NCBI GenBank assembly: GCA_965207445.1
Contig: CBDBLX010000002.1
Location: 2,071,849-2,135,848, forward strand
Source of the DNA: Nitrosopumilus sp.
Lineage (GTDB): Archaea > Thermoproteota > Nitrososphaeria > Nitrososphaerales > Nitrosopumilaceae
Length of the DNA: 64,000 nucleotides
Direction: 5' to 3'
The stretch's first letter is position 1; each line of letters opens with the position of its first letter. The translations under genes and the position numbers were made by a program. The notes beneath the pieces were generated by a model. It was given only the letters and a program-made list of their open reading frames with translations. It was not told where the DNA came from and searched no databases. Shown piece by piece: positions 4,958-60,789 of this stretch.

Positions 4958-5057
4958 GTGGTATCTGTAATGTGTTGTTAAAAAAATATTATGCAAGAAA
5001 TTAAAAATAACCAGAATGCATTATTATAATTTAATCACATATTTAATAAATTGTGAC

Positions 5058-5138
5058 GTAACCGCTCAACCCCTGTGCCTGCACTAGAAGTTAGGCGATG
5101 AATCTGTGTCTAAACTTGAGAATGAGTTGAACGGTTAC
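5058..5138 (-). mobile_element. MITE family A (81 bp), copy with intact target-site duplication
   Basis: Terminal inverted repeats GTAACCGCTCAAC / GTTGAACGGTTAC. Exact 9-bp direct repeat AATTGTGAC on both flanks (5049-5057, 5139-5147). Reverse orientation relative to the 21824 copy. Confidence 0.92.
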
Positions 5139-5339
5139 AATTGTGACATCATATTTGTCTTGTAGAATCATTCAAGTATTCAAATATGTTTATTAATACT
5201 TATTACTTGTATTAAAAATATTATTATTTTATTTGTAATTGTTATGTTGTTTAAATTATAACATGCAATATTATTATAATTAAGTATTATAATTGATAAT
5301 TAGCATCACTAAAATATTTGATAAAACATCAATAATACA

Positions 5340-6230
5340 GTGAGTGAAATAACACCTCAGATCAAAGAAGAACTAGAGAGATTCTTAAAAGAAGATATTG
5401 GAAAAGGCGATATTACAAGTGCACTACTCCCAAATGGTACAATTACAGCAGAAATAATTACAAAAGAAGATACAATAATTGCAGGTGTAACATATGCAAG
5501 AACTATGTTTGAATTACAAAATTGTGAATCCAAAATACTAAAGTCAGATGGTGTAAAGGCACACAAAGGAGACACCATTATGAGAATTAGTGGAAAACCA
5601 CAAAACGTACTAGCATGTGAGAGAACTGCTCTAAATTTGCTATCAAGAATGAGCGGTATTGCTACTGCAACAGCAGAGATCGTAAACAGGACATCAACAT
5701 CAACAAGAAAAATTGCAAAACTTTATGCTACAAGAAAGACAGCTCCCGGCTTGCGCATATTTGACAAAATTGCAGTAGAGATCGGAGGCGCAAAAAGGCA
5801 CAGAATGAGATTGGATGAATCAATAATGATAAAAGACAATCATATTGCAACAGTATGTACTCTAGATTCAAGATCTCCAAAACACACAACGAGTAGCGCA
5901 ATACAACATCTAATTAAAAAAGCAAAACAAAAGTACAAAGAAATAGAAGTTGAAGTAGAGAGTTCAACAGATGCCATAATAGCAGCGCGCGCAGGTGCAA
6001 CCACAATAATGATAGATAACTTATCACCCTTTGGTGTCATAGAAACAGTAAGGTTACTCAAAAAAGAGGGATTGCGAGATAGTATAACAATAGAGGCATC
6101 AGGCAAGATAACCAAAAAAAATATTGGAAAATATATGAAAAGTGGTGTAGATAGAATATCAATGGGTTCCATTACAAACTCTGTTAAAGGGGTTGATCTC
6201 AGCTTGGAGGTCATACAAGAGTCAAGTTGA
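5340..6230 (+). CDS. nadC: Nicotinate-nucleotide pyrophosphorylase (quinolinate phosphoribosyltransferase)
   Basis: Motifs EDIGKGDITS, TRKTAPGLR, HRMRLDESIMIKDNH and EVEVES; clustered with nadA and nadX. Confidence 0.95.
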   Translation: MSEITPQIKEELERFLKEDIGKGDITSALLPNGTITAEIITKEDTIIAGVTYARTMFELQNCESKILKSDGVKAHKGDTIMRISGKPQNVLACERTALNLLSRMSGIATATAEIVNRTSTSTRKIAKLYATRKTAPGLRIFDKIAVEIGGAKRHRMRLDESIMIKDNHIATVCTLDSRSPKHTTSSAIQHLIKKAKQKYKEIEVEVESSTDAIIAARAGATTIMIDNLSPFGVIETVRLLKKEGLRDSITIEASGKITKKNIGKYMKSGVDRISMGSITNSVKGVDLSLEVIQESS

Positions 6231-6623
6231 CTCCAAGTTCTCAAGTAACTCCTGTGCATCATTATTTTCTGGATCAATTTCTTGAATCTTTTTACACGAT
6301 AAAATGGCCTGGTGTTTCTGGCCTAATATGATATGAGATCTGGCCTTTAACAATAACGCTTCTGTATCATATGAGCCAATCTCGAGTGCTTTGTCCAAAT
6401 ATGAAAGAGCAGGTTTGTATTTTTTGTGCATATAATATATGGCACCCATAGTAAAAAGTAGATCATGGTTATGATCACCTATTTTACTCACATATTCGGC
6501 ACCACAGCGTAATGCCTTGTCATACTTTTTGTCCTTTACATAGGCCTTGAACTCTTTTAAGAGTTTACCACCCATCCCTTTTGTTTTACTCTTGTTGCCT
6601 CGATTAGAAAAAAGTCCAGTCAT
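6222..6623 (-). CDS. Small tetratricopeptide-repeat protein
   Basis: TPR-like helices (YKPALSYLDKALEI; EIDPENNDA). Confidence 0.75.
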   Translation of the reverse strand: MTGLFSNRGNKSKTKGMGGKLLKEFKAYVKDKKYDKALRCGAEYVSKIGDHNHDLLFTMGAIYYMHKKYKPALSYLDKALEIGSYDTEALLLKARSHIILGQKHQAILSCKKIQEIDPENNDAQELLENLEST

Positions 6624-6628
6624 TAAGA

Positions 6629-8861: not shown

Positions 8862-10259
8862 ATGAATAGAATCAACATGATATGTGTAATTGCATGCAGT
8901 GTTATGTTGGTACCAAGTATTATGATTATATATGATATGAATAACAATGTACATTACACAAAAAATGCATTTGCACAAATAGAACCAGATTCACCAAAAA
9001 AACAAGTAGAGTTAGGTGTTATGCCTGAAAATATAATATGTAAAAAAGAGCATGTGCTTGCGATCAGAGTAAATGGTGCGGCTATGTGTGTCACAGTAAA
9101 TACAGCAGAGATACTAGCTGATAGAGGCATTATAGACAGAATCATAGGCCATACAGCAAAATATGAAGATGAGAATGCAAAAAAGAATACCACATCCATA
9201 GAGTTACAAGATAAAATCAATGACATGGACACGAATCAAGGAAATCAGACAATTGTATCAAACTCGACTAGTGCAATGGCAAACACAAATGCAAGCGCAA
9301 CAGCATCAAATACAGATGCAACAAACATGGCAAACTCGACTAGTGCAATGGCAAACACAAATGCAAGCGCAACAGCATCAAATACAGATGCAACAAACAT
9401 GGCAAACTCGACTAGTGCAATGGCAAACACAAATGCAAGCGCAACAGCATCAAATACAGATGCAACAAACATGGCAAACTCGACTAGTGCAATGGCAAAC
9501 ACAAATGCAAGCGCAACAGCATCAAATTCACAAAAAGACAAGTCCAATCCAAGCAGCGTCACTACGATACCAGCATCCACCATGTCAGTTGTGAACTTTT
9601 ATGTCACAGATCACGATCTAAACATAGCTCGAAATGCACCAGAAACAATCTCAACAAAAGGATTATTGGAATTTACTATAAACGGAATACCCATTGAAGG
9701 GCCAAAAACTATGACAGAAACAGGACCCAATACAGGACAATTCTATGTAAAGTTGGAACTTCCTGCCACTATCAATGGCAGACCATTAAATCAAAATGAC
9801 ATAGTAGACATTACATATCTAGACAAATCAGATTATTCTGGAGAGCCACATACGGTCAGAAAGTCATTTACGCTCTCAAGCACATATGCACAACTTCAAA
9901 CACAAGGAGACGGCGGAAAACGAATCGGTCACGAGTTTAGACTTGTAATACATGAACCAGATGCAAACAGAGACTCACAAGAAGAAGACAGAATACCTTT
10001 GAATAGATTTGAGTTTGAAAGTAAAGGTAACATAAAGGTCACACTTGATCATCATGCATTTGATGCAAACAAGAGTCACATGGTAGAGACAGGTCCCAAT
10101 ACAGGAATATTTGATGTTACAATAAAGATACCACGTCAGATAGATGGTAAGATCATTAACATAGGTGACTGGTACAAGATCATATACAATGATTATACAA
10201 CACCATCAGGCACTTCAGAAGAGATAATTTTAAGAGGAAAGATAGGACTGTCATCCTGA
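8862..10259 (+). CDS. Exported / surface-layer-like protein with internal 24-aa Asn/Ser/Thr/Ala repeat
   Basis: N-terminal hydrophobic segment. Two ETGPNTG motifs and D-x-D-x-N motifs resemble thaumarchaeal S-layer-type domains. Confidence 0.7.
   Translation: MNRINMICVIACSVMLVPSIMIIYDMNNNVHYTKNAFAQIEPDSPKKQVELGVMPENIICKKEHVLAIRVNGAAMCVTVNTAEILADRGIIDRIIGHTAKYEDENAKKNTTSIELQDKINDMDTNQGNQTIVSNSTSAMANTNASATASNTDATNMANSTSAMANTNASATASNTDATNMANSTSAMANTNASATASNTDATNMANSTSAMANTNASATASNSQKDKSNPSSVTTIPASTMSVVNFYVTDHDLNIARNAPETISTKGLLEFTINGIPIEGPKTMTETGPNTGQFYVKLELPATINGRPLNQNDIVDITYLDKSDYSGEPHTVRKSFTLSSTYAQLQTQGDGGKRIGHEFRLVIHEPDANRDSQEEDRIPLNRFEFESKGNIKVTLDHHAFDANKSHMVETGPNTGIFDVTIKIPRQIDGKIINIGDWYKIIYNDYTTPSGTSEEIILRGKIGLSS
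9259..9527 (+). repeat. 72-bp perfect coding tandem repeat x~3.7 (NSTSAMANTNASATASNTDATNMA)
   Basis: Units start 72 bp apart (9261, 9333, 9405, 9477). Confidence 0.95.
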
Positions 10260-15652: not shown

Positions 15653-15758
15653 TAGTTTGTAAAATTTTGATAGGTATCTAAAAAGAAGTGTAAATGTGTA
15701 AATGATAATTATGCCCAAAATTAATCTTAAAATTATGACTAAATTGTGATCAATTTTT

Positions 15759-15906
15759 GTGTGAATCAATCTCTTTGGACACAATAATGAAATCACATAC
15801 TTGTGTTTGGTCACATCCCCGTCTACATGTCGAGTATTGTGCATGCGATACATTTGGCTAGTAGTTATTTTGAATGATTATATCAGTCATGGATCTTGGT
15901 TCACAT
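15759..15906. mobile_element. MITE family B, copy 2 (148 bp, opposite orientation, diverged)
   Basis: Colinear with the reverse complement of 3979-4127 along its full length. Ends GTGTGAATCAATCTC / GATCTTGGTTCACAT, flanked by AATTTTT on both sides. Confidence 0.85.
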
Positions 15907-16001: not shown

Positions 16002-17213
16002 TTACAGTGACGTCTTCGGTGACGATTTTCGCCTATTTGCACGATGCATCAACGCCAATATAACACCCACAAAACCAGCAATTACAAAACCAGCAATTAC
16101 ACCCGTTACAAGTTCACGTCCAGACACCTTTGCAGTGCTAGCAGCAGGTATTGTTTCAGGTTCATCATCATTTACAACAGATGTTGAGTCAGATAATTCA
16201 AGTACACAGGTGTCATCTACTAGAACAGTTCCAGGACCGCACTTTGATGTGTCAGTAGGAGCATCAGATTCAAGTATACAGGTGTCATCTACTAGAACAG
16301 TTCCAGGACCGCACTTTGATGTGTCAGTAGGAGCATCAGATTCAAGTATACAGGTGTCATCTACTAGAACAGTTCCAGGACCGCACTTTGATGTGTCAAA
16401 TGGTTGAACGGCAATAATATCAAATGTAGGCAAATCTTCATCAGAATTATCAACAGTATCAAGATCAGGTATTGGGATTGTATCAGGAGAGATCTCATCA
16501 GACACAAAATTATTTTCTGTAAAAGTATCATCTATTATGTCTTCTGTCAGGGTATCATCTACAACAGTATCATCTATTATGTCTTCTGTCAGGGTATCAT
16601 CTACAACAGTATCATCTACAACAGTATCATCTACAACAGTATCATCTACATCGTCAATAGTAGTTTCTTTGGCAACAAATATTTCAACAGTCTCAATACC
16701 TACAGGTAATTCTGAAATTATCAAATTTCTTTGAGATATTTCAAAATTTTCATGAAAATCTGTCTCTGTAAGAATTTGAAAGTCAGCATTAATATCAAAT
16801 ATGGGATCAAACACCATATCTGAGAGTAAAATTTCTAATCGTGTATCTGCGGTAACAGCATCATCATCAAAGCTCACAGAAAGTTCAAGAAATGGAAATG
16901 TTCCCAATGTAGCAGTAGTGATAGCCATTTGGGAGCCTTCGTACTCTAATAATGGAGGAACTTCCACAGATGCATCATAATCATCATCAGAATAGCCTAG
17001 AGGTACAGTTGTAGCATAAACAGGAACAGAGATCAACAAGGTTGTGGCAACAATACACACAGACACAATAACAAAAACAGATAAGATATTATTCATAGCA
17101 TCAAACATAGACACACGTGGACATTTAGATATAGTAAAATTCAATACATAATTGGCGTCATTACATACTGTTAAAAGTATTGAAAAACACACAGAATTAT
17201 CGTATATAATCAT
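16002..17213 (-). CDS. Acidic cell-surface protein with DDTVV and CGPGTVLVDDTC repeats and C-terminal membrane anchor
   Basis: Signal-like N-terminus, repeats, C-terminal TM and basic tail. The start is probably downstream of 17213. Confidence 0.75.
   Translation of the reverse strand: MIIYDNSVCFSILLTVCNDANYVLNFTISKCPRVSMFDAMNNILSVFVIVSVCIVATTLLISVPVYATTVPLGYSDDDYDASVEVPPLLEYEGSQMAITTATLGTFPFLELSVSFDDDAVTADTRLEILLSDMVFDPIFDINADFQILTETDFHENFEISQRNLIISELPVGIETVEIFVAKETTIDDVDDTVVDDTVVDDTVVDDTLTEDIIDDTVVDDTLTEDIIDDTFTENNFVSDEISPDTIPIPDLDTVDNSDEDLPTFDIIAVQPFDTSKCGPGTVLVDDTCILESDAPTDTSKCGPGTVLVDDTCILESDAPTDTSKCGPGTVLVDDTCVLELSDSTSVVNDDEPETIPAASTAKVSGRELVTGVIAGFVIAGFVGVILALMHRANRRKSSPKTSL
16197..16398 (-). 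repeat. 72-bp coding tandem repeat x~2.8 (DTSKCGPGTVLVDDTCILESDAPT)
   Basis: Units at 16197, 16269 and 16341. Confidence 0.93.
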
Positions 17214-21823: not shown

Positions 21824-21904
21824 GTAACCGTTCAACCCCTTCCCAAATTTAGGCACAAATTCACCGCCTAACGTCTGGCGCAGGTACGGGAGTTGAACGT
21901 TTAC
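21824..21904 (+). mobile_element. MITE family A copy (81 bp)
   Basis: GTAACCGTTCAAC...GTTGAACGTTTAC with the conserved interior CCAAATTTAGGCACAAATTCACCGCCTAACGTCTGGCGCAGG. Confidence 0.9.
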
Positions 21905-34731: not shown

Positions 34732-34811
34732 GGTACAGTTCAACCTCTTCCCAAATTTAGGCACAAATTTACCGCCTAACGTCTGGCGCAGGTACGGGGT
34801 TGAACGGTTAC
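34732..34811 (+). mobile_element. MITE family A copy (80 bp)
   Basis: Interior nearly identical to the 21824 copy; right end GTTGAACGGTTAC; left end degenerate. Confidence 0.88.
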
Positions 34812-43495: not shown

Positions 43496-43572
43496 GTAAC
43501 CGTTCAATTCCCGTGCTTGTACTAGACGTTAAGCAGTTAATCTGCATCTGAATTTGGCAAGGGGCCGAATAC
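43496..43572 (-). mobile_element. MITE family A copy, diverged, one end eroded
   Basis: Begins GTAACCGTTCAATTCCCGTGCTTGTACTAGACGTTAAG and is colinear with the 5058 copy. Confidence 0.75.
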
Positions 43573-43694
43573 ACGATAACCTCGTTCTTCCTCTTTCTGC
43601 ATGGTTCTTTAATCAAAATATTTCATATGTTATTTCTCATACAAAAAAACATTATAAGATTGAGATTTGACACATTAATTAATCATTTAAATGT

Positions 43695-47438: not shown

Positions 47439-47639
47439 TGTATGCGCAACTTTAGACCCACCTTAAATGTCATCGTTTTTAGAATCTGTTACATAACAAA
47501 TATACAATTTAAGAGTTGATTGTGTTGTCTTGTATTGTATTGTATTGTATGTACGATTATACGCAAAATGTAGCATAATAACACATCTGCAAATTTGGAA
47601 TCATCACTAGACAAACAAAAAACGTTTTCAAATCACAAT

Positions 47640-50381
47640 TTATGCATCCGACCTACATTTTTTACAACAAGTATGAATCTTGAGCAAACCATGTCTCTTT
47701 TCAAGTCCAAACTCTTTTATCGCCTCTACAATTAGATTAGTTTTAATCCCACATATGTGACAATATTGATTATATTTTTTCTCTCTTGTGAGTCTTATAA
47801 CATCCTCAAGTTTTGTCTGCACGTTATCGCCGGCATATATCGTCGACGAGTACCAAAGCCCATATCGTTCCTCACGATTTACAGCATCTACCCACAAGCA
47901 TAACGCATCTTTTTTGGCCTTGTCGACATCATCTTCTTTGCCTTTACCTTCTAGCACAAGTGTGACTCCAGTATCTAAATGAGCTATAAAATCAGGTCTG
48001 TATGTCCGCTCTGTATTATCTGGATGCACATAAGGAACTGCAAATCCTGACATATCTGATTTGGCCCACGATATTACATTTGAATTTCTGTCAAGTTCTT
48101 TTCCAATTGTGAGTTCTAGATCAGAGTCCGCCGTCATTATGTTGAGATGGGTCTTTTTTGGTTTGAGACGTTTTGATTTTGTAGTAAATTTACTGCCTGA
48201 CATGTCAGTTGAATCAATTCCAACAATGATTGCCTTTGGTTTGGATTTCGGATCTGATTTTACAACACTGGAAAAAATATCGCGTCCGATGTCATCACGA
48301 TAAGCCACAAGCATTTTAATTAATCCATTTTCATCAAGACGAGTCTTTACATATTTGGAGATATACCTTTTTACAATCGCAAGCATATCGATTGTACTCT
48401 GTAGAGGATTCTCATTATAAGGATTGGATTCTATCCATGGGGATGACTCTAAACGACGCATGTTTCCAATAACATCTTGTAGTATTCCATATGTGATAGT
48501 TTGGAGTCGTAGTTGTGGAGTAATTGTAGTATCTGTGGCTTTTACCCAACCATCTACAAGTGGTCCCAGATTCACAGATGTGGTAGGGGTGTGTTCAAAT
48601 TGTGTTAATTTGATATTATTCCAATTAATTTTGGTACGTATAGTTATTAGACTCTGTATCTTTGTGACTATGGGCCATCCGATACGGTGTTTTGGTCGTG
48701 TTGCATGTATTTCAACAGGAGGTTTTGAAGGTCCATTTATACCGCCGTTATTTGGTTCCATCTCAGATAATATGCCAGCAAATGGAACACCTAAAACACA
48801 AACACCTTCGGACTCAAACAACCCGTCACTGTTCAGATCATAACTTGTACGTCGCAGGCCACGTCCTACCACCTGTTCGCACAACAACTGGGACTTGAAT
48901 GCGCGTAACCCCATGATATGAGTCACTGTTTTTGCATCCCATCCTTCAGTCAACATATCTACAGATACTATATTACACACATCTTTACCAGAACTGTTAG
49001 GTTTTCCAACTGAAGATACCATATCTCGAAGATCTCGTCGACCACCCTCACTGTTGATGGCTTTGATTGCCTCATTGTCGATATGTAAGAGTGACTCTGG
49101 TTTTACAAGGTCGACATTTAATAGAAACTTGCCTTTCTTAATGTGATCTACGACAAGCTTTGCATGTTTTGTGCTATTGCATATAGTGATCATTACAGGA
49201 GGTGTGGAGCGTGCAGACCATTTTTTATTTACATTCAACCAATCAGTTCCAAGTATTTGATATGCATCTTTGATTATATTTGGTATTGATCCTTTTTTTA
49301 GAGATGCGCTCACATCTTCATGCCGATATAGATGATAAAACCGATCGCCATGGCGTGGCGTATATGGAGTCTTGACAAGTCCGGATTCTATTGCATCTGC
49401 AAGTGAGAAATCAGAGATTATCCATTTGAACATATCATCATAAGTAGCACTCTTACCTGTTGGCACAAACGGCGTAGCAGAAAAATCATGACATTGCATT
49501 ATTGTACACGCCTCATGTATGAGATCAAGACCCGACATCCATGTGCCCGCTCTTTCAGCTTCATTAGAATCCACATCAGTAGTAGTGTATTCTGATGATC
49601 TCCATGCATGATGTCCCTCATCATTTATGACAAGAACATTAGAAGTATTTCTTCCAAGTATGGATGCCGCAAATGATCTAGCTCCTTGTACTCCAAGCTT
49701 TGCCACACTTGTAGGTTTTGATCTCTTTGGTTTTAGTTGATGAAAGTTGGTTATGACAATGTGGGAGCTTCCCATCTTACTTGTATATCCTGCAGGAACA
49801 AGATCAAACTTTTCATATACATTGTCGCGATTACCAGGATATAGATCTTGGAGTCTATCCTTTACAGTCAGATTTGGTGTGACTACAAGTATATTCTTTG
49901 TATATTTTTTACCAGTGTTGAGAACCTGCCATACGATCAGCATACCCATGACAATAGTTTTTCCAGTACCTGTCGCCATCTTTGTGCAGTATCTAATAAA
50001 TGCACTACTATCTCCGGTTATGAATTTGTCAATAATGTTTGGATGCTCTGATGCATATATGATAGTCTCAATGGCCTCTAATTGACAAAAAAACAATCTA
50101 GACTCGTCACGATATCTCCAGTGTCGTAGTAATTGTTTGGTTGTTTCAGTTGAACCTGCATAATTTGATTCTCGCCATTTATCTACATATGGACGAATTT
50201 TATTGACGCTGTCAATTGAATTGTGTATTCCATACTTTCCATCCTCGGACATACTCTGGTATCCAGATGGCCTGCGACCATGGGTTTTACAATACATGTC
50301 ACGCTCTGAATCGTATTGATAATATTCTATAGGCATCTCATATGGATTGCATATAATCAGTTTGTCAATACCCTTTACCAT
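47640..50381 (-). CDS. res: Type III restriction enzyme Res subunit
   Basis: KMATGTGKT Walker A, NDEGHH, MLTEGWD, EQVVGRGLRR and C-terminal PD-(D/E)XK (YRPDFI...LEGKG); overlaps the mod stop. Confidence 0.92.
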   Translation of the reverse strand: MVKGIDKLIICNPYEMPIEYYQYDSERDMYCKTHGRRPSGYQSMSEDGKYGIHNSIDSVNKIRPYVDKWRESNYAGSTETTKQLLRHWRYRDESRLFFCQLEAIETIIYASEHPNIIDKFITGDSSAFIRYCTKMATGTGKTIVMGMLIVWQVLNTGKKYTKNILVVTPNLTVKDRLQDLYPGNRDNVYEKFDLVPAGYTSKMGSSHIVITNFHQLKPKRSKPTSVAKLGVQGARSFAASILGRNTSNVLVINDEGHHAWRSSEYTTTDVDSNEAERAGTWMSGLDLIHEACTIMQCHDFSATPFVPTGKSATYDDMFKWIISDFSLADAIESGLVKTPYTPRHGDRFYHLYRHEDVSASLKKGSIPNIIKDAYQILGTDWLNVNKKWSARSTPPVMITICNSTKHAKLVVDHIKKGKFLLNVDLVKPESLLHIDNEAIKAINSEGGRRDLRDMVSSVGKPNSSGKDVCNIVSVDMLTEGWDAKTVTHIMGLRAFKSQLLCEQVVGRGLRRTSYDLNSDGLFESEGVCVLGVPFAGILSEMEPNNGGINGPSKPPVEIHATRPKHRIGWPIVTKIQSLITIRTKINWNNIKLTQFEHTPTTSVNLGPLVDGWVKATDTTITPQLRLQTITYGILQDVIGNMRRLESSPWIESNPYNENPLQSTIDMLAIVKRYISKYVKTRLDENGLIKMLVAYRDDIGRDIFSSVVKSDPKSKPKAIIVGIDSTDMSGSKFTTKSKRLKPKKTHLNIMTADSDLELTIGKELDRNSNVISWAKSDMSGFAVPYVHPDNTERTYRPDFIAHLDTGVTLVLEGKGKEDDVDKAKKDALCLWVDAVNREERYGLWYSSTIYAGDNVQTKLEDVIRLTREKKYNQYCHICGIKTNLIVEAIKEFGLEKRHGLLKIHTCCKKCRSDA

Positions 50382-52756
50382 TTTGCAAGGCCTCTGACAG
50401 TCAGTGATTCGTTTCCACTTGTATCAATTATCTTAACTGCAATTCTTTTGTGGTGTCCCATCTCAAATGGAATTGATGTTGTATCTGAATACTTTTCCAA
50501 AAGTTCGGAATCAATCTCACTTCGTAGTGTATCCTTTAGATTTTTCCAGAGATTTGGCCTAGTTGGAAAGAACAGTTGCTTTACACGTAATGTTCTACCA
50601 TCATAGTCAGTATCAAGCATCCACATTGCAATGTTGTCTGCAGTGCCCGGCACTACCTTGTCTTGAATCGGATCATAATAGTCATATCCCCTAATTTTGA
50701 CCACATAATTTTTGCCTTTTTTTGATATTTCAACATCAGGCTCACCTACCATGTTAAAAGGCTGATCTGTACTCTGAGTCTTTAACTCTGATACAAGTAC
50801 ATCATTATTTATTAAAACAGTCTGTGCTCCTGTCGTCTTGTCTATAGTACTTTTTGCTACAGGATCAAATGCCATGGCAAAGAATAACACTTTATCAGTC
50901 TTGGATATCTCTACAAGAACCTGATCCACTTGATGTTTCCCCATGGGTCCGTGATCTGGGCCAAATGATATGGCCGTTTTCTGATCGCCGTTGTAAGCAT
51001 ACGCATGTATGGGCGAAGTGTTGTCAGAATTTTTCTCAATCTTGTCAAATCTCATAGGAGTAGTTTTAGTTGTAATGCCAGAGGTCGCAAGTGATGACAG
51101 TAAGTTGTCCCTTACTGGCACAACATTATTCTCATTGTGGATGACTGGTGAGGGTATGGACTCGACTGTAAACGGACCCGTAACACGGCTACGATTATCT
51201 TCAGTTTTTGGCTTGTCATATCTGACTATTGGTGTTTCTGATTCGTCTGATGATAATGATTTTGCAGTTAATCGCACTTGAGTCTCATATTGAAAACCAG
51301 CATCAACTCCCGCATCATTGTTAACGAGTTTGTACCATGGATATGTTGCAGTTTGTAATCTACAACGTATTGTTGCCAATGATATACGTGATGTGTCACA
51401 TGTTATCCAACGCCGTCCCCATTGTTCTGCTACATGTGCAGTAACACCTGATCCTCCGGTAATATCCATGACAAGATCTCCCACATCAGATGCCATCAGC
51501 ATGCAGTTTTGAACAACAATAGATTTGGTTTCGACTACGTAATTTTTACTGCTTAATTGTGTTCCTTCCCATATATTCAAAAATAGTTGGGGAGAATCTT
51601 CTGGATATTCAATACGATATACTCTACTTACGCCAAAATAAACTCGATTTTGATTATAAAGTACATCCAAAGCATCATGTCCTAGTCGCCATTGAGAACC
51701 TGCAGGAATAGAGTATGTCTTGCCGTTTGGGAATGTATGAGGTTTGGATCTGTCCGTGGTTGATTCCCCCTGAGAATCAAGATGAATTGTACTACACCGA
51801 CGCGAACCTTTTGGAAGATTTCCGTCTTTGGGTGCTGTAATAATGGAGCCATTTTTTAGATGAATCTGTTTGTGTGTATTTTGTATAGACTTATCAGTTC
51901 TATCCTGCCAAAGTCTATTGAATTTTACATTTTCTTTATTTTTAGCATACCACAGTATGTAATCATAAGGATTTGGTCTATCGCCTACGCCGCCGCCACC
52001 TTTTGTTCTGAATAGAATTTGCCACATAAAATTTTCAGGACCAAACACTTCATCAAGCAAGAGACGAACCAAATGTTGATTTTTAGTGGATATCTGGACG
52101 AATATTGAACCAGTGTCTGCGAGTAATTCTCTGGCAAGGGTTAATCTTTTTCGCACCATAGCCAGATACGAATGAATACCCATGCTCCAAGAGTCTCGAA
52201 ACGCCTTGATTGGTTCTGGACGTTTCTCAATATTATGTACATCATCCTTTACATGTGTATCAAATATTTGTGATTGGAAATTACTATTATATTTGATACC
52301 ATATGGAGGATCAAAATAAAACATTTGGAGGCGGCCTGCCATGTTCTCTTTTTCCAACAACGATGTCATCACCAAAAGAGAATCTCCTGCAATTATGCGA
52401 TTAGTCCATCCATCTTCATGTTCATAAAATTCTACGGCTTCATTGTGTGGTCTAGTGTTTCCAAAAAAATCATCAAGTGTTGATTTTTTTGCTATAACGG
52501 GATCAAGAATAGCAGAAGGATGTACAGATTCATGCACATGCAATGGGACTACATCAACATCAATCTTGTCAGTTTCATCACGACCATTGAAAAGAAGAAT
52601 TGGCGAGTCATGGGGATCAATTTCTGGATAGTATGTCTTTTTGGATGGACGTATGTTATCTTTGACAAGCCCAATGGATGGATTGTTTTTGCGTCGCTCA
52701 TGTTTGTGCTGATAGTCACCAACAGTGACTTTTGAGTGGCTTTTTGATCGCCTCAA
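50375..52756 (-). CDS. mod: Type III restriction-modification methyltransferase (Mod)
   Basis: GDSLLVM, DPPY motif IV, then DITGGSGVTA motif I (beta order), and IAVKIID..GNE C-terminus. Confidence 0.92.
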   Translation of the reverse strand: MRRSKSHSKVTVGDYQHKHERRKNNPSIGLVKDNIRPSKKTYYPEIDPHDSPILLFNGRDETDKIDVDVVPLHVHESVHPSAILDPVIAKKSTLDDFFGNTRPHNEAVEFYEHEDGWTNRIIAGDSLLVMTSLLEKENMAGRLQMFYFDPPYGIKYNSNFQSQIFDTHVKDDVHNIEKRPEPIKAFRDSWSMGIHSYLAMVRKRLTLARELLADTGSIFVQISTKNQHLVRLLLDEVFGPENFMWQILFRTKGGGGVGDRPNPYDYILWYAKNKENVKFNRLWQDRTDKSIQNTHKQIHLKNGSIITAPKDGNLPKGSRRCSTIHLDSQGESTTDRSKPHTFPNGKTYSIPAGSQWRLGHDALDVLYNQNRVYFGVSRVYRIEYPEDSPQLFLNIWEGTQLSSKNYVVETKSIVVQNCMLMASDVGDLVMDITGGSGVTAHVAEQWGRRWITCDTSRISLATIRCRLQTATYPWYKLVNNDAGVDAGFQYETQVRLTAKSLSSDESETPIVRYDKPKTEDNRSRVTGPFTVESIPSPVIHNENNVVPVRDNLLSSLATSGITTKTTPMRFDKIEKNSDNTSPIHAYAYNGDQKTAISFGPDHGPMGKHQVDQVLVEISKTDKVLFFAMAFDPVAKSTIDKTTGAQTVLINNDVLVSELKTQSTDQPFNMVGEPDVEISKKGKNYVVKIRGYDYYDPIQDKVVPGTADNIAMWMLDTDYDGRTLRVKQLFFPTRPNLWKNLKDTLRSEIDSELLEKYSDTTSIPFEMGHHKRIAVKIIDTSGNESLTVRGLAKW

Positions 52757-52840
52757 AGGAGTCCCCTCCTGATCTTATATGTTGACGGTCCTAGATAAAT
52801 GCCGGATTTTTTGGTTGTCTCCTCAGAGGCTCTTCTCCTA

Positions 52841-52893
52841 TAGTAGGTAAGTAGTAGGTAAGTAGTAGGTAAGTAGTAGGTAAGTAGTAGGTA
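52841..52893. repeat. 11-bp tandem repeat (TAGTAGGTAAG) x~4.8 upstream of mod
   Basis: Read directly from the sequence. Confidence 0.93.
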
Positions 52894-52956
52894 GAATATG
52901 CTTCATATCACAGGATTTTTTTACACTAACATCTAAACTTTTGCAGATAGCCTGCA

Positions 52957-53037
52957 GTAACCGTTCAACTCCTTCCCAAATTTAGACACAGATTCATCTC
53001 CTAACGTCTGGCGCAGGCACAGTAGTTGAACTGTTAC
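52957..53037 (+). mobile_element. MITE family A copy (81 bp) with near-perfect 9-bp target duplication
   Basis: Terminal repeats GTAACCGTTCAAC / GTTGAACTGTTAC; flanks TAGCCTGCA / TAGCCTTCA. Confidence 0.9.
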
Positions 53038-53112
53038 TAGCCTTCAACCCCTTCCAAAATTTAGGCATAGATTCGCCACCTAACTTCTGCAGACGCAGGG
53101 TTGAACGGTTAC
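53038..53112 (+). mobile_element. MITE family A copy, left end disrupted by the adjacent copy
   Basis: TTCAACCCCTTCCAAAATTTAGGCATAGATTCGCCACCTAAC...GTTGAACGGTTAC. Confidence 0.85.
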
Positions 53113-53380
53113 GTCTCGTAAGCACAAAACCTATGCACGACACACCACGATATGGTGTTAAATTAAGAGTAAGTCTGTTTTTTATCGTGAATGATATACA
53201 AAATTTCAATAAAGTAAATTCACATTTGTATCAAAATCATATTAAATAACATCAATGACACATTAACAAGCATTATATCTTTACAACAATTGTAAATTGA
53301 ATTTATGCAACAGATTTTTTGTCACCCCGCAGATGCAAAAAAAAAATAATTATGAGGATATATTAGATTGTAAATTACAT

Positions 53381-55561
53381 TTATGCAACAGACTTTTTGC
53401 CACGTCCACCTTTGGTACCAGTAGTTATCTTTCCCCACTGTGCCAATGCAGATGCAGCCGCAACCCAGTCTCGAAGATCACTATATACAGGTACACCTCT
53501 TTCTTCAATACTTTTGCTGACCTTGTTTGTAAACGGCCCGCCGTTTGCACCAACCAAAAGTGGTTTTACCTTCTTTTTTGAAAATGCGGCCAAATAGTCG
53601 ATTATAACCTCATCAAGTGGGTCGTCTTGGAACACAAACCAAGGCATTACAATATCCACATTATCATCATCCATGAACGTCTTTATGACAAACTTATAGT
53701 CCTCTGCACTAGCCCCTCCCGTAACATCCACTGGGTTTCCTTTGCCAATTACATATGTTGGAGGAAAGTGTTTTACCATTTTTGCAGCAGAGTCAGAACT
53801 GACATTTGCAAGTTTCAATCCCAAGCGCTCAAAATGATCAATTGCACCAATCATCGGACCAGCACCATTACTAGTCATTGCAGAACCATTTCCCCTAGCA
53901 GGTGGTTGCCATGACAGAGCCTTTGTGACTGCCACTAACTCTTGGTAACTGTCAACTGATATGATGCCTGCCTGTTTGAATGCACCCATTATTATTGCAT
54001 TGGAGCCACCAAGTGAACCAGTATGAGATGCGGCTTGTTTTGCACCCATTTCAGTTCTTCCTGATTTCCATATTACAATGGGCTTGCCTTTCTCTTTCAT
54101 AACTCGTTTTGCAGTGTTGATGAACTTGCGTCCATCTCCAAAACCTTCAACATATAGAGATATGACTTTGGTCTGAGAATCATCTGCCAAATACCATATC
54201 ATATCAGCCTCATCAACATCAGAACGATTACCATAACTTATCATCTTTGAGAGTCCAAACGAGTCAGCAGACTCTAAAAAGCTGATCCCCATAGTACCGC
54301 TCTGAGACAATAATGCAACATTGCCACGTCTAGCGCGCACCATTCTCTCTTGTCCTTGAAACGCACAATCAAGCCTGTTTGCTGCATTGAACATTCCAAT
54401 GCAATTTGGTCCAATAATACGAATCTTGTGCTTTGTAGATAGTCGCTTTACCTCTGCCTCATATTCGGCTCTCTGTCCACCAAGTTCCTTGCCTCCGCCA
54501 GATACGATAACCACGCTACGCACACCTTTTTTGGCGCAATCCTCTAGTACAGGTGGAATAATTGAGAGATCAACTGATATCACAACCAAGTCTACTTTGC
54601 CAGGTATATCTGCAACTGATGGATAACACTTGCGCCCAAATATCTTATCGGCCTTTGGGTTGATTGGATATACTTTACCTTTGTAATCATAATTTGCCAG
54701 ACTGTCAAGTATAGAGTTTCCTATCTTACCTTTTGTTGTAGAGGCGCCCACAAGCGCAACTGACTTTGGCGTAAAGAATTTTTCCATATCACTACTATTT
54801 GGCTTTGTCTTTGAGATAGAGTTTGCATTGACATTATCATTTAAAATTATCTTTGCATCTACCACATAGTGAGATACAGAATTAGATTTTGGGTATACCA
54901 CAACAGGGTTAAAGTCAATACTGTTAATGTAATCTGCATGATCAATACCAAGCTTGCCTATCTTGACAAGTGTATCTGCAACTGCATTGACATCTACAGG
55001 CTCTGCACCTCTAAATCCTTGTAATAGTGCTGCACCGCGCAGCTCTGCAAGCATTGACTTTGCATCAGATTTAGTAATTGGTAGCATTCTAAATGCCACA
55101 TCCTTCATTATCTCAGTCATAATTCCACCAAGTCCCACCATAATAACGGGACCAAATTGTGGATCGTTTTGGATTCCAACAATAAGTTCTACACCTTTTG
55201 GAACCATCTTTTCAAGCAGCATGCCTTTGAGTGTGACGTCTTTTTTCTTTGACAGTCTTTTGTACATGTCATCAAACGTCTTTTTAACATCACTTGTATT
55301 TTCAACTCCAACCTTGACACCTCCAACATCAGTCTTGTGTAGTATCTGAGGTGAGACTACCTTCATTACAAGTGGAAAGCCTATGCGTTTTGCTTTCTTG
55401 ACAGCATCAGATGCAGATGTTGCAATAGCGTATGGTGGAACGCTTATTCCATACGTTTTAAGAATAGACTTTGAAGTCTCCTCTGTGATTACATTATCAG
55501 AAGACTGCATTATTTGATCAAAGATTTTGCGTACATCACCTTGATCGTTTTTAACTGCCAT
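53381..55561 (-). CDS. ADP-forming acyl-CoA synthetase; probable 3-hydroxypropionyl-CoA synthetase of the 3HP/4HB cycle
   Basis: N-terminal ATP-grasp ([13 protein letters not shown]) fused to CoA-binding domain ([20 protein letters not shown]). Substrate inferred from AOA gene context. Confidence 0.88.
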
Positions 55562-56038
55562 TTACTAGGGGCGAAGATATTCTGTATATTAACTATTCAC
55601 AGAAGATAACAAGAGATTAAATTTTCATGAAATATTGAAATATGATTATATTTTTTGTGAAATTCATTAGTCTGAACCAACCATCCTGATTGATATATTC
55701 ATTTAAAATTTGAATATGAATAAGTAAAATTAATTTAGATTTTGAGGTTTTGTAATGATTATATTTTTCATATTTAAATTAATCTATTTAAATTATTGGA
55801 AATAAAAAATAATCTAAGAATAGTTTCAAGAAACGTTTATGCATACAAAATACATACTCAAAGTAGGACGCCTCTTTCCCTATCAAAAAACGCGAGTTGT
55901 AATTCGTTATAATATAATCATATATATTTAACAATGTGTTATACATCCCTTCAATCACATATCATCAAAATAATCTAATAATATAGCAAATGCATTAAAT
56001 TGATCAATTTTTTGCAAGCCAAAATTGTATTTTGTTTT

Positions 56039-57313
56039 CTAAGGCCAGATACCTTTTTGCTCAAAGGCATCTATTACACGTTGCACTGCAAGAACCATTG
56101 TGGCTTTTCTCATGTCAATTTTATGATCAGTTGATAGTACGTATGAGTCTTTGAATCCTTTTGTAATCTTTTCCTCCATCTTTTGAGCAACTTCATCAAA
56201 TGACCAGTAATAACCCATGTTGTTTTGTACCCACTCCAAATAGGATATACATACGCCACCAGAATTTGCCAATATATCAGGAATTACCAGTATCTTTTTC
56301 TTGTACAGTATGGGATCAGCAGCTGGCAATGTAGGTCCATTTGCAGCCTCTCCAATAATTTTACACTTTATCTTTCTTGCAATCTTAACGTTAATCTGAT
56401 TCTCCAAGGCACCAGGTACGAGTATATCACATTCAGTTGTTAGCAACTCTTCAGTTGTGATGCTTTTACTTTTAGGAAACTTGACGACACTCCCAGTCTT
56501 CTTTTTGTGTGCTAATACGCTGTGAATTTTTGTATCTTTTGGTAAAAGTACACTGCCTTTTGAATCACTTACTGCAATTATTTTTGCACCCATATCCTCA
56601 AGATATTCGCCTGCATGTGTAGAGGCATTTCCAAACCCTTGTAACACAACAGTTGCGCCTTGAAGGCTTAGTCCCAGTACACCGGCGGCCTCTCTTACAG
56701 TATAAGCAGTTCCAAGTCCAGTTGCAACATCTCTTGCAAGGGAACCACCCATGACAATAGGTTTACCTGTAATTACACCTGGCGTGTACTTGTTCTCATT
56801 TAGTTTGTTAAAGGTGTCCATAATTTGAGTCATCTCTCTGCCAGTTGTGTATACGTCTGGTGCAGGTATGTCTTTTTGAGGGCCAATGATTTCAGAAATT
56901 TGGTATGCAAATCCACGTGTCAGTCGTTCTAACTCACCATCACTAAGACCCTCAGTCTTTGGGTTTACAAATATGCCACCTTTACCACCTCCAAGTGGAA
57001 CATCAACGATTGCACACTTCCATGTCATCCATGACGAGAGCGCCATGACCTCACGCTCCATATACTCAACACCACCGGTAGGATTAAAGTATCGAATACC
57101 GCCTTTGTAGGGCCCACGATCATTGTTATGTTGGCTTCTAAATCCAGTGAATATACGAATCTTACCATTGTCCATTCTTACAGGAATTTTAACACGCATA
57201 ATGCGATTCGGCGTTGCAAGATAGTCACGCAACCCATCATCTTTAATGCCTAATATGTCACATGCATCATGCACTTGTTTAGTTGCATTTGCAAAAGGGT
57301 CATGTAGAGACAA
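56039..57313 (-). CDS. gdhA: Glutamate dehydrogenase
   Basis: Motifs GPYKGGIR, GGGKGG, DIPAPDV, QGFGN, EAANGP and ANSGGV..SYLEWVQN. Confidence 0.95.
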   Translation of the reverse strand: MSLHDPFANATKQVHDACDILGIKDDGLRDYLATPNRIMRVKIPVRMDNGKIRIFTGFRSQHNNDRGPYKGGIRYFNPTGGVEYMEREVMALSSWMTWKCAIVDVPLGGGKGGIFVNPKTEGLSDGELERLTRGFAYQISEIIGPQKDIPAPDVYTTGREMTQIMDTFNKLNENKYTPGVITGKPIVMGGSLARDVATGLGTAYTVREAAGVLGLSLQGATVVLQGFGNASTHAGEYLEDMGAKIIAVSDSKGSVLLPKDTKIHSVLAHKKKTGSVVKFPKSKSITTEELLTTECDILVPGALENQINVKIARKIKCKIIGEAANGPTLPAADPILYKKKILVIPDILANSGGVCISYLEWVQNNMGYYWSFDEVAQKMEEKITKGFKDSYVLSTDHKIDMRKATMVLAVQRVIDAFEQKGIWP

Positions 57314-57362
57314 GTAATTAAATACTAAAGGCTCAATGTTATATAGTTTGCTTTTTAAAACT

Positions 57363-57443
57363 GTAATTGTTCAACGCCTTTCCAAATTTAGGCACAAATT
57401 CACCACCTAGTATCTAGCGCAGACACTAGGACTGAACGGTTAC
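57363..57443 (+). mobile_element. MITE family A copy (81 bp), 50 bp upstream of gdhA
   Basis: GTAATTGTTCAAC...CCAAATTTAGGCACAAATTCACCACCTA...ACTGAACGGTTAC. Confidence 0.85.
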
Positions 57444-58051
57444 TCTCTAGTACAAATTTAATTTGCGGCAGTTGTTTACGCCTCCATCCTTCCTCTCCCC
57501 TCCCATCTAACACACACCTCTTCTGAGCAGATACAATCTAGGCATAATAACACATACAATAAATCGGTTTGAGAGTGGAGTAAATGTACAGTATGATGTG
57601 ATATTTGTAAACTCATTATAACAGAATTTAATCAAAAAATACTAATCAAATACGAACAAATCAGACAGAACATTTGATGAGTATAGTGTGTGTATGTATG
57701 TCAGAGACATACGCGCTACACGGCAGAACAGATATCATACACTTGTCTCCAATAAAGTCACAATTGAGATGTATGAATCAAATGAACTACTATGGAGATA
57801 TCAACAATCCCAGATACACTACAAAGCACCACGCCAATTGATGTGAATCCATTAGTGAAAATAGTAAATAATCATACAAATTTCATATACGCAATAGACA
57901 ATTTATTTGCAAATGAATGTTGCCAATTCCTAATATTTGACATTTGATTTTGTATAAACAAATATGCCAGATCATATTCATCAAACACTACAACAAGATC
58001 ATATTCATTAAATATTGTAATGACATCAAGTCATCATAACATTAAAGTATT

Positions 58052-58468
58052 TTACAAATAGACTTTTTTTCTGTTCTTTTTTGAAATATTGCGAGAGAGT
58101 TGGTCTATTGCTGCATCAAGTGTAGCAAGGTTTGTCTCTAACAGATCAGAGATTCTATACAATACACCATATTGAGCATCATCACCAATAGTTGATACCA
58201 TACTGTTATGCATCAACATATTCATATGGTGTTTTACTGCTTTGTAATCTAATCCAAGTTCTATTGCGAGTTGATTGTTATTTTGTGGTTGTTCTAGTAG
58301 TTTCATTATAATGCGCAAACGTGTAATTCCACCCCGAGTTCCTGCAAATATGTAAAATAGAAGTTTTTTTGTATGCTTGTCAGTCTTACGCTGTGTAGAA
58401 TTCAGAGTATTCATATGACGTAGGGTCCGCTGAAACTCATCTAATAATAACAACTGTTGATCTGCCAT
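58052..58468 (-). CDS. ArsR-family winged-HTH regulator
   Basis: Motifs LLFYIFAGTRGG..R..I, NQLA..LGLDYKAVKHH and YG..Y. Confidence 0.85.
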   Translation of the reverse strand: MADQQLLLLDEFQRTLRHMNTLNSTQRKTDKHTKKLLFYIFAGTRGGITRLRIIMKLLEQPQNNNQLAIELGLDYKAVKHHMNMLMHNSMVSTIGDDAQYGVLYRISDLLETNLATLDAAIDQLSRNISKKNRKKVYL

Positions 58469-58960
58469 ACAATACAACGCATATAGGTTGCTTAAAACGT
58501 TATATCCAATTTCAAATTCTTATGTATATACACACATACAAAGCACAATAGAAATTCGAGCACACATCCAATTCAAATTTGAGGTTTACAATACATCAAA
58601 ATCCGCGTACACAACAAACCATCTTTTGAGTGTTAAATGGTGAGAGGTCTTGTCACAAAAAAACAAAAAAACAAAAAAACAAAAATTTAATGTACCAAAA
58701 ATCGAGTATTCCACAAAATGTAATACATACTATGAGTTTGTTCTTTTCATAGTAGCATAATTAATTATCCAAACTGCTTTGTTTATGATATTTATAATCA
58801 TATAGTCGATATACACAGTAATAATATATAAATATATAAAAATATATAGTTGAACCTAGAGTTAATAATTTAGTTATAATAAACATAAGATCATTTAGAT
58901 CTACAAATTAATTGACCACGTATAAACCCTTAAATTGACTTTGAAGGGACTCAGTATATC

Positions 58961-59683
58961 ATGATGGCATCACGTAACTATGACATGACATCTACAATGT
59001 ACTCACCGGATGGTCGAATCTATCAAGTAGAGTATGCAATTGAGACTGTAAAGAGAGGGACACTTGCAATTGGAGTATGCACAAAAGAAGGAGTCATAAT
59101 TGCAGTAGAGGAAAAACCAAGAACACTTCAGACAAAGAATGTGACACAAAAGATATTCCAAGTTGACAAACATATTGGCGTTGCAGCAGCAGGGTATATT
59201 CCAGATGCAAGAGTAGAGGTGGATAATGCAAGATTATTTTCTCAAGGCACTAGAATGACATATGATGAACCAGTTGAAGTATCTACTGTTGCAAAGCATT
59301 TAGCAGATCATGCACATCAATTTACCCAATATGGCGGAGTGCGTCCAAATGGAGTGTCCATGATTATCGGTGGAATAGATCAAAAAGGAGATTCTATTTA
59401 CGTAATTGACCCAAGTGGGGCATACATGCAATATATGGCAGTATCAATAGGGGCAGGCTCAGATGATGTAAATGGGTTTCTTGAGAAAAACTACAAACCA
59501 GATATGAATATTGAAGACGGAATAAAGCTTGCAATCAGTGCCATTAATCTAAAGGTAGAGAAAAAAGATGAAATTCTACATATAAAAATGGCAAAAATAT
59601 CCAAAGACAAACAAGAGTTTGAAAAGTTATCAGACAAGACATTGCAAGATCTCGCAAACAATATGCCAGAGTTTACCACTTGA
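58961..59683 (+). CDS. psmA: Proteasome subunit alpha
   Basis: YDMTSTMYSPDGRIYQVEYA signature and QFTQYGGVRP. Confidence 0.96.
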   Translation: MMASRNYDMTSTMYSPDGRIYQVEYAIETVKRGTLAIGVCTKEGVIIAVEEKPRTLQTKNVTQKIFQVDKHIGVAAAGYIPDARVEVDNARLFSQGTRMTYDEPVEVSTVAKHLADHAHQFTQYGGVRPNGVSMIIGGIDQKGDSIYVIDPSGAYMQYMAVSIGAGSDDVNGFLEKNYKPDMNIEDGIKLAISAINLKVEKKDEILHIKMAKISKDKQEFEKLSDKTLQDLANNMPEFTT

Positions 59684-59710
59684 GAGAATGTCAAAACAGA
59701 TGAATCAACA

Positions 59711-60484
59711 GTGGACACTAAAAAAGACGATAATAGCAAGAATAGAGGGAATAATCGAAAAGACAGAAATCAAAACGACGGCACACCAGAAGGATTAGGT
59801 AGTAGTTATTGGTCAAAAGTCATTGTAGTATTACAAGATATAATACCAGTGTATGACAAAGTAAATCGCATAATATCATTAGGTAAAGATGCCAAACACA
59901 GAAAGCGCGGAATATCAAAGAGGGTACTGCCAGGCAATCATATACTTGATGCAGGTTCTGGTTTTGGTAACATGTCAAAAACTGCATCAGAGATAACAGA
60001 CAATAAAATAACAATAACTTTGTACGATCCACTTGTTGCAATGCTAAAGAACACAGGAGTATTATTTACAAACAAACCCGACTCTACGTGCGGGGTCTTT
60101 GAGCATATGCCATTTAATAATAACGTATTTGATGCAGTATTATGCGGCTATTCATTGAGAGATGCAATAGATCTTAGAGATGCCATATCAGAGATGCATC
60201 GAGTTCTAAAAGATGGAGGAAGGTTAGTTATAGTAGATCTTGGCAAACCAGATAACACAATTATACGTACAGGGGTCTCATTTTACCTTAAATGTATTCT
60301 GCCCATATTGGCTCTTTGTGCAGGAGGTAAACTTGGATTAAAGTTTGGCACATTGCACGGGACATTTCAAAGATGGCCACAAAATGCAAAGCTAAAAGAT
60401 ATTCTTCTGGAAAAATTTGAGCGAGTAGAGTTTGAAAAAGATTTGATGGGAGGTGCAATAGTGGTTGCAGCATTTAAACGATAA
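59711..60484 (+). CDS. UbiE/MenG-like class I SAM-dependent methyltransferase
   Basis: Motifs YDKVNRIISLG, LDAGSGFG and EMHRVLKDGGR. Confidence 0.85.
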   Translation: MDTKKDDNSKNRGNNRKDRNQNDGTPEGLGSSYWSKVIVVLQDIIPVYDKVNRIISLGKDAKHRKRGISKRVLPGNHILDAGSGFGNMSKTASEITDNKITITLYDPLVAMLKNTGVLFTNKPDSTCGVFEHMPFNNNVFDAVLCGYSLRDAIDLRDAISEMHRVLKDGGRLVIVDLGKPDNTIIRTGVSFYLKCILPILALCAGGKLGLKFGTLHGTFQRWPQNAKLKDILLEKFERVEFEKDLMGGAIVVAAFKR

Positions 60485-60713
60485 AGATAGGACAAAAAAG
60501 TAGGTATGTGATAAAGTTGGTAGTATCATTATACTATGATCATTATTATTAGTATTAGATATGGTTGGTGTGATCGTTACTAGTAACAGTATCACCATCA
60601 TCACGATCATCAGTACGATTATCATCCGCATAATTTTGATCATTATTTTGATTGACAGATACAAGTTACAATATTATCAATTGTTAAGAGATCATAAATT
60701 ACCGACATTAAAC

Positions 60714-60789
60714 GTAACTGTTCAATTTTTTTAAATCTAGAAACATATGTTACCGCATATACGGTTTGTATAGATACAAGAACAGTAAT
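60714..60789 (+). mobile_element. MITE family A relic, heavily eroded
   Basis: GTAACTGTTCAA...AAATCTAGAAACATA..TACCGC...GAACAGTAAT; similar length and landmarks to the other copies. Confidence 0.5.

Follow-up and report, generated by a model that had tools for sequence, protein, structure and literature searches.

Among archaeal miniature transposons (MITEs), the SM1-SM4 families of Sulfolobus solfataricus are present in 25-44 copies (PMC10969869). The 81-bp repeat described here resembles them: it is short and non-coding, possesses terminal inverted repeats, is flanked by duplications, lies between genes and would be moved by a transposase acting in trans. It differs in that this one family numbers about 180 copies, in its ammonia-oxidising host, in its IS66 partner, and in that two thirds of the copies appear as junctions without a duplication. 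The main text of the same review contains neither the word 'IS66' nor 'deletion'. A search of the openly accessible literature found no paper on an IS66-partnered MITE in an ammonia-oxidising archaeon; the supplement of PMC11602168 could include the family. The ISBst12 group of IS66 is characterised by a single ORF, and ISDge4 has a GTAAC-type end and an 8-bp repeat (PMC12898284). The present repeat shares with this group the GTAA(C) termini, a single-ORF partner (PF03050/NF033517) and duplications of 8-9 bp; unlike the insertion sequences of the group it has no ORF, and its duplication is mostly 9 bp whereas ISDge4, ISPpa5 and ISPpa7 show 8 bp. In Acinetobacter, class 1 integrons lie between MITEs (PMC10969869). 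Here also cargo is enclosed by two MITE-type ends and flanked by an outer duplication, but one partner is a full MITE and the other a bare end or a different family end. Adjacent deletion is textbook behaviour of DDE insertion sequences. The junctions described below are alike in lying exactly at the element end with one target copy lost, and unlike in that the deletion is read, for an 81-bp non-autonomous element, from genome scars alone.

The 81-bp family and its probable IS66 partners

The window, a stretch of 64,000 nucleotides, contains eight copies, all of which had been listed in the initial annotation and all of which proved genuine. An nhmmer search recovered seven of them, each with an E-value of 1e-11 or lower, and its reversed-genome control gave no match at E<=1. 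The eroded eighth copy falls below the HMM threshold, yet it can be aligned end to end with a score equalled by none of 2000 shuffles preserving the terminal repeat. The proposed features of the copies, namely occurrence in both orientations, a TTAGGC-N11-GCCTAA inverted repeat in the best copies, and target duplications that are exact at the 5058 copy (AATTGTGAC, 9 bp) and 8/9 at the 52957 copy, were all seen again. The copies and the island discussed later are as follows.

5058..5138, minus strand: full 81-bp MITE, exact 9-bp duplication (5049-5057 / 5139-5147), between a divergent AAA_33-domain gene and nadC
21824..21904, plus strand: near-majority copy with 2 differences, duplication absent (2/9), between a fumarase-family gene and a tRNA methylthiotransferase gene
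34732..34811, plus strand: 80-bp copy, left terminal repeat damaged, without duplication
43496..43569, minus strand: decayed copy with one end gone, between the dph5 and riboflavin kinase genes, which converge
47533..53116, unstranded: type III restriction-modification island (res 47640-50381, mod 50375-52756)
52947..53112, plus strand: older copy, split by the 52957 copy into a stub (52947-52956) and the rest (53038-53112)
52957..53037, plus strand: nested copy, 8/9 duplication of the terminal repeat of its host copy
57363..57443, plus strand: full copy, duplication absent (3/9), upstream of gdhA
60714..60789, plus strand: eroded copy, upstream of tatA

A tandem arrangement of the 52957 and 53038 copies was rejected; the former sits within the left-hand terminal repeat of the older element, 9 bp of which it duplicated on insertion, and the outer ends of that older copy show no target duplication. 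Among the gene labels, nadC, tRNA methylthiotransferase, cbtA, mod/res, gdhA and tatA stood, but the "kinase" matches AAA_33 only. At the 21824 site the fumarase-family and tRNA methylthiotransferase genes almost abut in 4/5 congeners, and the cbtA/DUF4443 block containing the 34732 copy is absent at the syntenic place in both congeners covered. The window had been described as a high-density stretch, a view which did not hold, as 64 kb of this genome carry 4.4 copies on average (P(>=7)=0.16, P(>=8)=0.08).

Genome-wide, 181 loci were counted at E<=1e-3 and none in the reversed control, giving a family of about 180 loci, 128 of them full-length, with one locus roughly every 14 kb on average. 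The largest count for all MITE families in one archaeal survey is 251 (PMC11602168). Length ranges from 76 to 89 bp with the mode at 81, below the 500-bp limit for a MITE and leaving no transposase coding capacity, and the terminal inverted repeats of 13-16 bp are the least diverged portion. Mean divergence is 11%, and the long activity suggested for the family is supported. No identical pair was present among 127 full-length copies, nearest neighbours differing by 1-16 positions; transposition is read from sequence, and current mobility is only putative.

An exact 9-bp duplication flanks 25 of the 128 full-length copies and an exact 8-bp duplication four more, while flank lengths of 5-7 and 10-12 gave no exact duplication at any of them. 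The target sites have no clear consensus. Three exact-duplication copies lie inside repeats which resume right after the 8-9 duplicated bases, so the other copies of these repeats represent empty-site paralogues. In the sequencing reads (4 runs, one sample), no MITE empty site was found among the joints listed for window positions 42400-61200, bar an island-sized skip. The 81-bp repeat is a genuine miniature transposon.

The earlier proposal of a non-autonomous IS66-type element is supported by the duplications, by the empty-site paralogues and by a matching single-ORF IS66, which was found intact in the genome. This partner is a 2.13-kb element with one ORF and no accessory genes, scoring above the cut-off of both PF03050 and NF033517. 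Its lineage has five full copies, all with a 9-bp duplication and four with an ORF of 548-553 aa; one of them is present in haplotype C1, its site being empty in the co-existing haplotype C2. Its ends are identical to the MITE terminal repeat at 12/13 and 11/13 positions, and an intact IS66 with near-identical ends and 9-bp duplications marks the repeat as an IS66-family MITE. A broken IS66 lineage at C2:1189820-1191918 has ends 13/13 identical to the MITE, and its copies are 85-92% alike, comparable to the mean divergence of the MITE. Three other IS66 families with intact ends make 8-bp duplications and match only 8-10/13 terminal bases. Beyond the terminal repeat, the subterminal alignment of the MITE with either IS66, both being candidate parents, is weak (uncorrected p 0.02-0.48). 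It is likely that the MITE was moved in trans by a resident IS66 enzyme, and the partner is putatively placed in the ISBst12 group by its single ORF, not by a tree.

Full-length copies without target duplication

Target duplication is lacking in 85 of the 128 full-length copies. Of the 83 such copies on C2, 26 cut a multi-copy repeat internally, and the other 57 have no multi-copy flank shown as cut. The cut repeat resumes cleanly in 0/26 of these, compared to 3/3 exact-duplication copies (Fisher p=2.7e-4). The offset of the cut from the terminal repeat has its mode at 0, in 23 ends, and both MITE ends are used equally at junctions (16:16). Among the 11 copies whose flanks match at 8/9, one was also scored as cut without resumption. 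Deletion size was readable in two of the 26 cut repeats, being 120 nt in one and about 525 nt or more in the other. This pattern suggests that most copies sit at cut junctions and that two thirds of the full-length copies are rearrangement marks, a feature overlooked in the initial annotation.

Four of 86 copies bound a composite unit with an outer duplication, against none in six shifted controls. The cargo, of 3.4 kb, 0.96 kb and 8.5 kb, encodes an unknown protein of 970 aa and a HAD hydrolase and also includes IS fragments. When partner ends were sought anywhere in C2, 2/172 were obtained where about one is expected, and both are composite units. Synteny was compared with one congener, G063, on the basis of 1034 reciprocal best hits between crudely called ORFs. 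Conserved genes were not lost in excess in this comparison (8/37 duplication-less intervals vs 7/23). Synteny breaks were more frequent in duplication-less intervals (37/74 vs 5/28), an excess which MITE-free intervals of like length equal and which is thus confounded by interval length.

The reading we favour, and hold to be probable, is that of an IS66-amplified 81-bp MITE whose ends are used again, either to excise neighbouring DNA or to carry it along. Transposition inserts the MITE with a 9-bp, sometimes 8-bp, duplication. The transposase would bind the GTAACCGTTCAAC-CCC ends; the now-broken lineage with 13/13 ends was probably the source of most copies, and the intact lineage with 12/13 and 11/13 ends could still mobilise them. 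The junctions observed would arise when one MITE end becomes linked to a fresh target close by, an adjacent deletion which removes one duplicated flank along with the intervening DNA. More rarely, an end may pair with a distant family end and move cargo as a composite unit. Selection would then retain only junctions sparing conserved genes, so that surviving scars are found in IS debris and accessory islands. No host function for the MITE is needed to account for the pattern.

CRISPR-Cas and restriction-modification loci at MITE ends

One surviving scar would be the MITE copy at C1:79587-79667, which stands in place of C2:61088-81863. The latter is a 20.8-kb type I-G CRISPR-Cas locus containing Cas7g/56g/3g/8g/1g and 122 repeats. 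Homology between the haplotypes restarts exactly at the right terminal repeat of the MITE. Among the contigs listed, the junction was reached from the left side only, 28 nt into the MITE, in 4/4 runs, and none bridged the MITE.

At the left junction the MITE end and another IS end, which C2 retains, are identical over 11 bp, so microhomology repair also fits. More generally, the copies without duplication may be hybrids of the same MITE produced by homologous recombination or microhomology repair with no transposase step, which would likewise put junctions exactly at ends. We judge this explanation unlikely. The left-right linkage of copies is kept (rho 0.30 vs 0.18), undiminished in those without duplication, and a chimerism test gave no sign of hybrids. 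Exchanged flanks were absent as well, none of the 85 full copies without duplication sharing a swapped flank exactly at 9 or 8 bp. The 120-nt deletion would require two insertions at most 120 nt apart, against the mean spacing of the family.

The type III restriction-modification island of the window terminates 4 nt beyond the MITE pair at 52947..53112, is missing from 3/3 congeners, and its flanks form a 7/9 direct repeat (47527-47535 / 53113-53121). The island and its MITE pair are skipped by a minor contig in 2/4 runs, showing a minor population which lacks both. A bolder idea is that MITE ends serve as portable cut-and-carry sites switching defence islands in and out within the population, one haplotype having lost its type I-G locus at a MITE end, and a single MITE end having either brought in the type III island or taken it out. 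This is a speculative proposal, and we regard it as doubtful.

Gene context, age and nature of the repeat

Since the window copies mostly lie upstream of genes, the initial annotation had considered regulatory exaptation, and recruitment as a regulatory or structured-RNA unit has some features in its favour. Intergenic position was found for 169/172 loci, and divergent gaps are slightly enriched (58 vs about 45, p=0.025). Folding of the complete element is good (z about -3), and divergence is somewhat lower in the hairpin stem than at other internal positions (G/C 0.13 vs 0.21). However, about 89% intergenic placement is usual for archaeal MITEs (PMC11602168). A gene start borders 145 of the 169 intergenic copies (86%) against 79% expected by length, which is near chance, and neither a start-versus-end bias (49:38, p=0.28) nor an orientation bias relative to genes (43/87) was detected. 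Shuffled sequences fold as well as the core (z -0.19), so the folding stems from the terminal repeats. Over 6 stem pairs in 77 copies only 3 double changes were seen, giving no covariation in the hairpin, and decay is mostly C>T and G>A. An Rfam scan of the window gave no match, a simple pattern search found no TATA-like motif, and a sigma-70 scan, with a model ill-suited to an archaeon, gave nothing above chance. Among 60 genomes of relatives one weak 21-nt match was obtained, and the terminal pattern was found in 0/150 congeners, in no metagenome contig and in no viral contig. In the genome contig collection it occurs at one locus, in genome G175, which has 2 MITE copies, both lacking the hairpin, and only short or broken IS66 matches. 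The exaptation proposal is thus unsupported, and a regulatory or RNA role appears quite improbable.

Direct-repeat conservation is known to wane with time (PMC10969869), and the duplications could have been eroded by age, with the copies being passive and marking nothing. Copies with a duplication differ at 8.70 positions per 81 (n=27) and those without at 8.68 (n=50), and this equal divergence argues that age is not the cause of the absent duplications. In addition, flank-match scores are bimodal rather than graded, duplication is absent from 22 of the 39 copies scoring highest, and none of the 26 cut repeats resumes. Erosion by age is therefore largely refuted and very improbable. The initial annotation held that a lack of duplications, with no empty sites in relatives, would favour a REP-like or ncRNA repeat, here taken as one whose spread needs no DDE transposase; the lack of duplication was indeed found in the majority of copies, but the 29 exact duplications, a resident IS66 agreeing in its ends and in the length of its duplication, and above all the three empty-site paralogues refute this reading, whose probability is close to nil.

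The copy number of this MITE is high for an archaeon, and its missing duplications record secondary rearrangements rather than age. With a candidate transposase still intact and two haplotypes present side by side, the poorly characterised IS66 mechanism, together with adjacent deletions, becomes testable. The MITE offers a route to population-level CRISPR-Cas loss and, if its ends do switch defence islands, the standing variation in defence against viruses would be driven by a non-coding element of 81 bp.

Transposition and distribution of the 81-bp repeat

All eight copies of the 81-bp repeat described for the window in the initial annotation are present. A profile built from five of them recovered 7/8; the eroded copy at 60714-60789 fell under the HMM threshold, yet it could be aligned end to end, with a score reached by 0/2000 shuffles in which the terminal repeat was retained. 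For genome-wide counting with a model, as had been suggested, the profile was rebuilt using every 81-nt copy; at E<=1e-3 it matched 181 loci, of which 179 lie on the main contig (C2), and zero loci in the reversed genome used as control. The window is not enriched as had been claimed, since the genome average is 4.4 copies per 64 kb (P(>=7)=0.16).

The full-length set comprised 128 copies, one entry representing the same site in both contigs. An exact 9-bp target duplication was found in 25 of these and an exact 8-bp duplication in 4, while 11 showed an 8/9 match, 3 a 7/9 match and 85 none. Flank lengths of 5-7 and 10-12 bp gave zero exact matches in this set. Three exact-duplication copies sit within multi-copy repeats which resume after the 8-9 duplicated bases and whose sister copies continue MITE-free. 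These duplications and paralogous empty sites bear out the earlier claim, and the MITE is a transposed element. The 52957 copy is nested in the 53038 copy, within its left terminal repeat, and the sequence duplicated around 52957 (8/9 match) is therefore that terminal repeat. Terminal-repeat-like motifs were observed within 20 nt of an end in 6/128 full copies, compared with 0.65% of random pairs, suggesting that some copies inserted into, or next to, ends of their own family. At G000:C2:55825-56356 (G000 is this genome), a ~580-bp segment occurs twice with nested MITEs clustered in between. In the second contig, C1, the segment is single and uninterrupted.

The terminal pattern was absent from 150 congeners searched. 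Another Nitrosopumilaceae genome, G175, possesses two diverged relatives of 81-82 bp, one with an 8-bp duplication. Sulfolobus MITE families have 25-44 copies (PMC10969869), and the top archaeal count is given as 251, with about 89% of archaeal MITEs intergenic (PMC11602168); 'Nitroso' and 'IS66' do not occur in the main text of the latter. A literature search for an IS66 MITE in ammonia oxidisers found no paper. The host is probably itself an ammonia-oxidising archaeon, judged from a 3-hydroxypropionate-CoA ligase match (score 1299.9, cut-off 1300) along with archaeal proteasome genes and gdhA.

Other repeats were also observed. A second family of ~118 bp (window 4015-4132 and 15754-15871) has roughly 100 blastn matches genome-wide, and one copy interrupts the broken IS66 at C2:1189820 (see below). 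A third, AT-rich repeat of ~140 bp (window 55667-55811) has about 21 other matches; the region upstream of another IS66 lineage is matched as well. Tandem repeats at window 9187-9530 and 16196-16411 have a 72-bp period, which is the CRISPR repeat-plus-spacer period; tandem periods peak genome-wide at 71-74, to which the CRISPR array itself contributes part.

Resident IS66 elements

The genome contains 46 PF03050 matches. A candidate for the IS66 partner with matching ends sought in the initial annotation was found, an intact, single-ORF family of 2.13 kb. Its ends agree with the MITE at 12/13 and 11/13 bases, exact 9-bp duplications flank 5/5 full copies, and its ORF, above the NF033517 cut-off, is 548-553 aa in 4/5 copies. 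Single-ORF IS66 elements are placed in the ISBst12 group (PMC12898284). One copy of the intact family is present in C1 and its site is empty in C2. Another copy (L019, G000:C2:74679-76828), with an ORF shortened to 408 aa, has inserted into one of the CRISPR repeats in the type I-G array and is flanked by a 9-bp duplication. A related but broken lineage has ends identical to the MITE (13/13). Its copies are 85-92% alike, similar to the MITE divergence (mean 8.7 differences in 81). Three further IS66 families have 8-bp duplications and match the MITE at 8-10 of 13 end bases; 8-bp repeats are on record for two IS66 elements (PMC3281130). The broken lineage was probably behind most of the MITE spread, and the intact lineage may still act on the MITE. 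All 127 copies compared differ from one another, therefore there was no very recent burst. In every testable respect the family is a MITE, and its ends and duplication length are common to the resident IS66.

Genomic position and the internal stem

Gene neighbourhood was analyzed at 172 loci using crude gene calls, and 169/172 were intergenic. A gene start adjoins 86% of intergenic copies against 79% expected by length; copies are mildly over-represented in divergent gaps (p=0.025), and neither start-versus-end nor orientation bias was found. Placement upstream of gene starts, noted in the initial annotation for the window, is genome-wide near the intergenic expectation. Double changes across the 6 pairs of the internal stem were counted in 77 copies; there were 3, and the stem does not covary. 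Its decay is chiefly C>T and G>A, and it is not preserved in the G175 relatives. The core minus terminal repeats folds like shuffles (z -0.19), and Rfam gave zero matches. On this sequence evidence, the suggested regulatory exaptation finds no support.

Copies without target duplications

On C2, 26/83 duplication-less copies interrupt a multi-copy repeat where most sister copies run on. Clean resumption beyond the MITE was seen in 0/26; two resume past a gap, of 120 nt and of about 525 nt or more. The cut offset from the terminal repeat has a mode of 0 (23 ends). One of the 11 copies with an 8/9 match was likewise scored as cut without resumption. Age does not explain the missing duplications, as divergence is equal in both classes and 22/39 best-scoring copies have none. 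No swapped flanks were found between full copies, cut ends are distributed 16:16 on both sides and left-right linkage is intact in duplication-less copies, all of which argue against recombinant hybrids and for transposase-made adjacent deletion. Adjacent deletion is a known IS behaviour.

An outer 8-9-bp duplication shared with a distant family end was observed in 4/86 copies and in none of six shifted controls.

Units bounded by a MITE and a distant family end, with outer 8-9-bp duplication
98 bp
961 bp
3.4 kb
8.5 kb

The 8.5-kb unit (L037, G000:C2:1601832-1610328) runs from family end to MITE with an 8-bp outer duplication and contains a 970-aa protein without Pfam match, a HAD hydrolase and a DDE_Tnp_1 transposase. 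MITE-flanked cargo is on record (PMC10969869).

In comparison with the congener G063, synteny breaks occur in 37/74 duplication-less and 5/28 duplication-bearing intervals (p=0.003), and they are about as frequent in MITE-free intervals of equal length as in duplication-less ones. Conserved-gene loss shows no excess in duplication-less intervals (8/37 versus 7/23). The genes flanking the 21824 copy are adjacent in 5/5 congeners, therefore any DNA loss there was small. At window 32142-35900, a cbtA / DUF4443 block separates argC from a LysW-type kinase gene. The two genes are close neighbours in the congeners G063 and G152; 95 bp are duplicated at the block edge (32142-32236 / 34097-34191).

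The type III restriction-modification island (window 47533-53116) is missing from a minor contig (2/4 runs) which joins 47532 to 53117 without the restriction-modification genes or the 52957/53038 pair. As 3/3 congeners lack the island too, the minor contig may preserve the ancestral empty site. The island is flanked by a 7/9 direct repeat and one edge lies 4 nt past a MITE terminal repeat; a MITE role in its presence or absence is unproven because the left edge has no terminal repeat.

C1 (121 kb) is a second haplotype of the end and start of C2. Over most blocks it is 98-99% identical to the start of C2, and several IS elements occur in one of the two contigs and not in the other. Some of the 5.5% contamination estimate may be due to C1. 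A single MITE, C1:79587-79667, stands in place of C2:61088-81863, the type I-G CRISPR-Cas locus, which contains 122 repeats. Homology restarts exactly at the right end of this MITE; on the left, C2 retains 11 identical bases, part of another repeated element's end. In 4/4 runs, all from one sample, contigs cover the left flank and the adjoining 28 nt of the MITE, and none among the contigs listed for the four runs bridges it. One scar showing the 72-bp period of the array is common to both contigs. On the basis of this scar, and with such scars read as Cas1 misintegrations, the CRISPR-Cas locus is more likely to have been lost in C1 than gained in C2.
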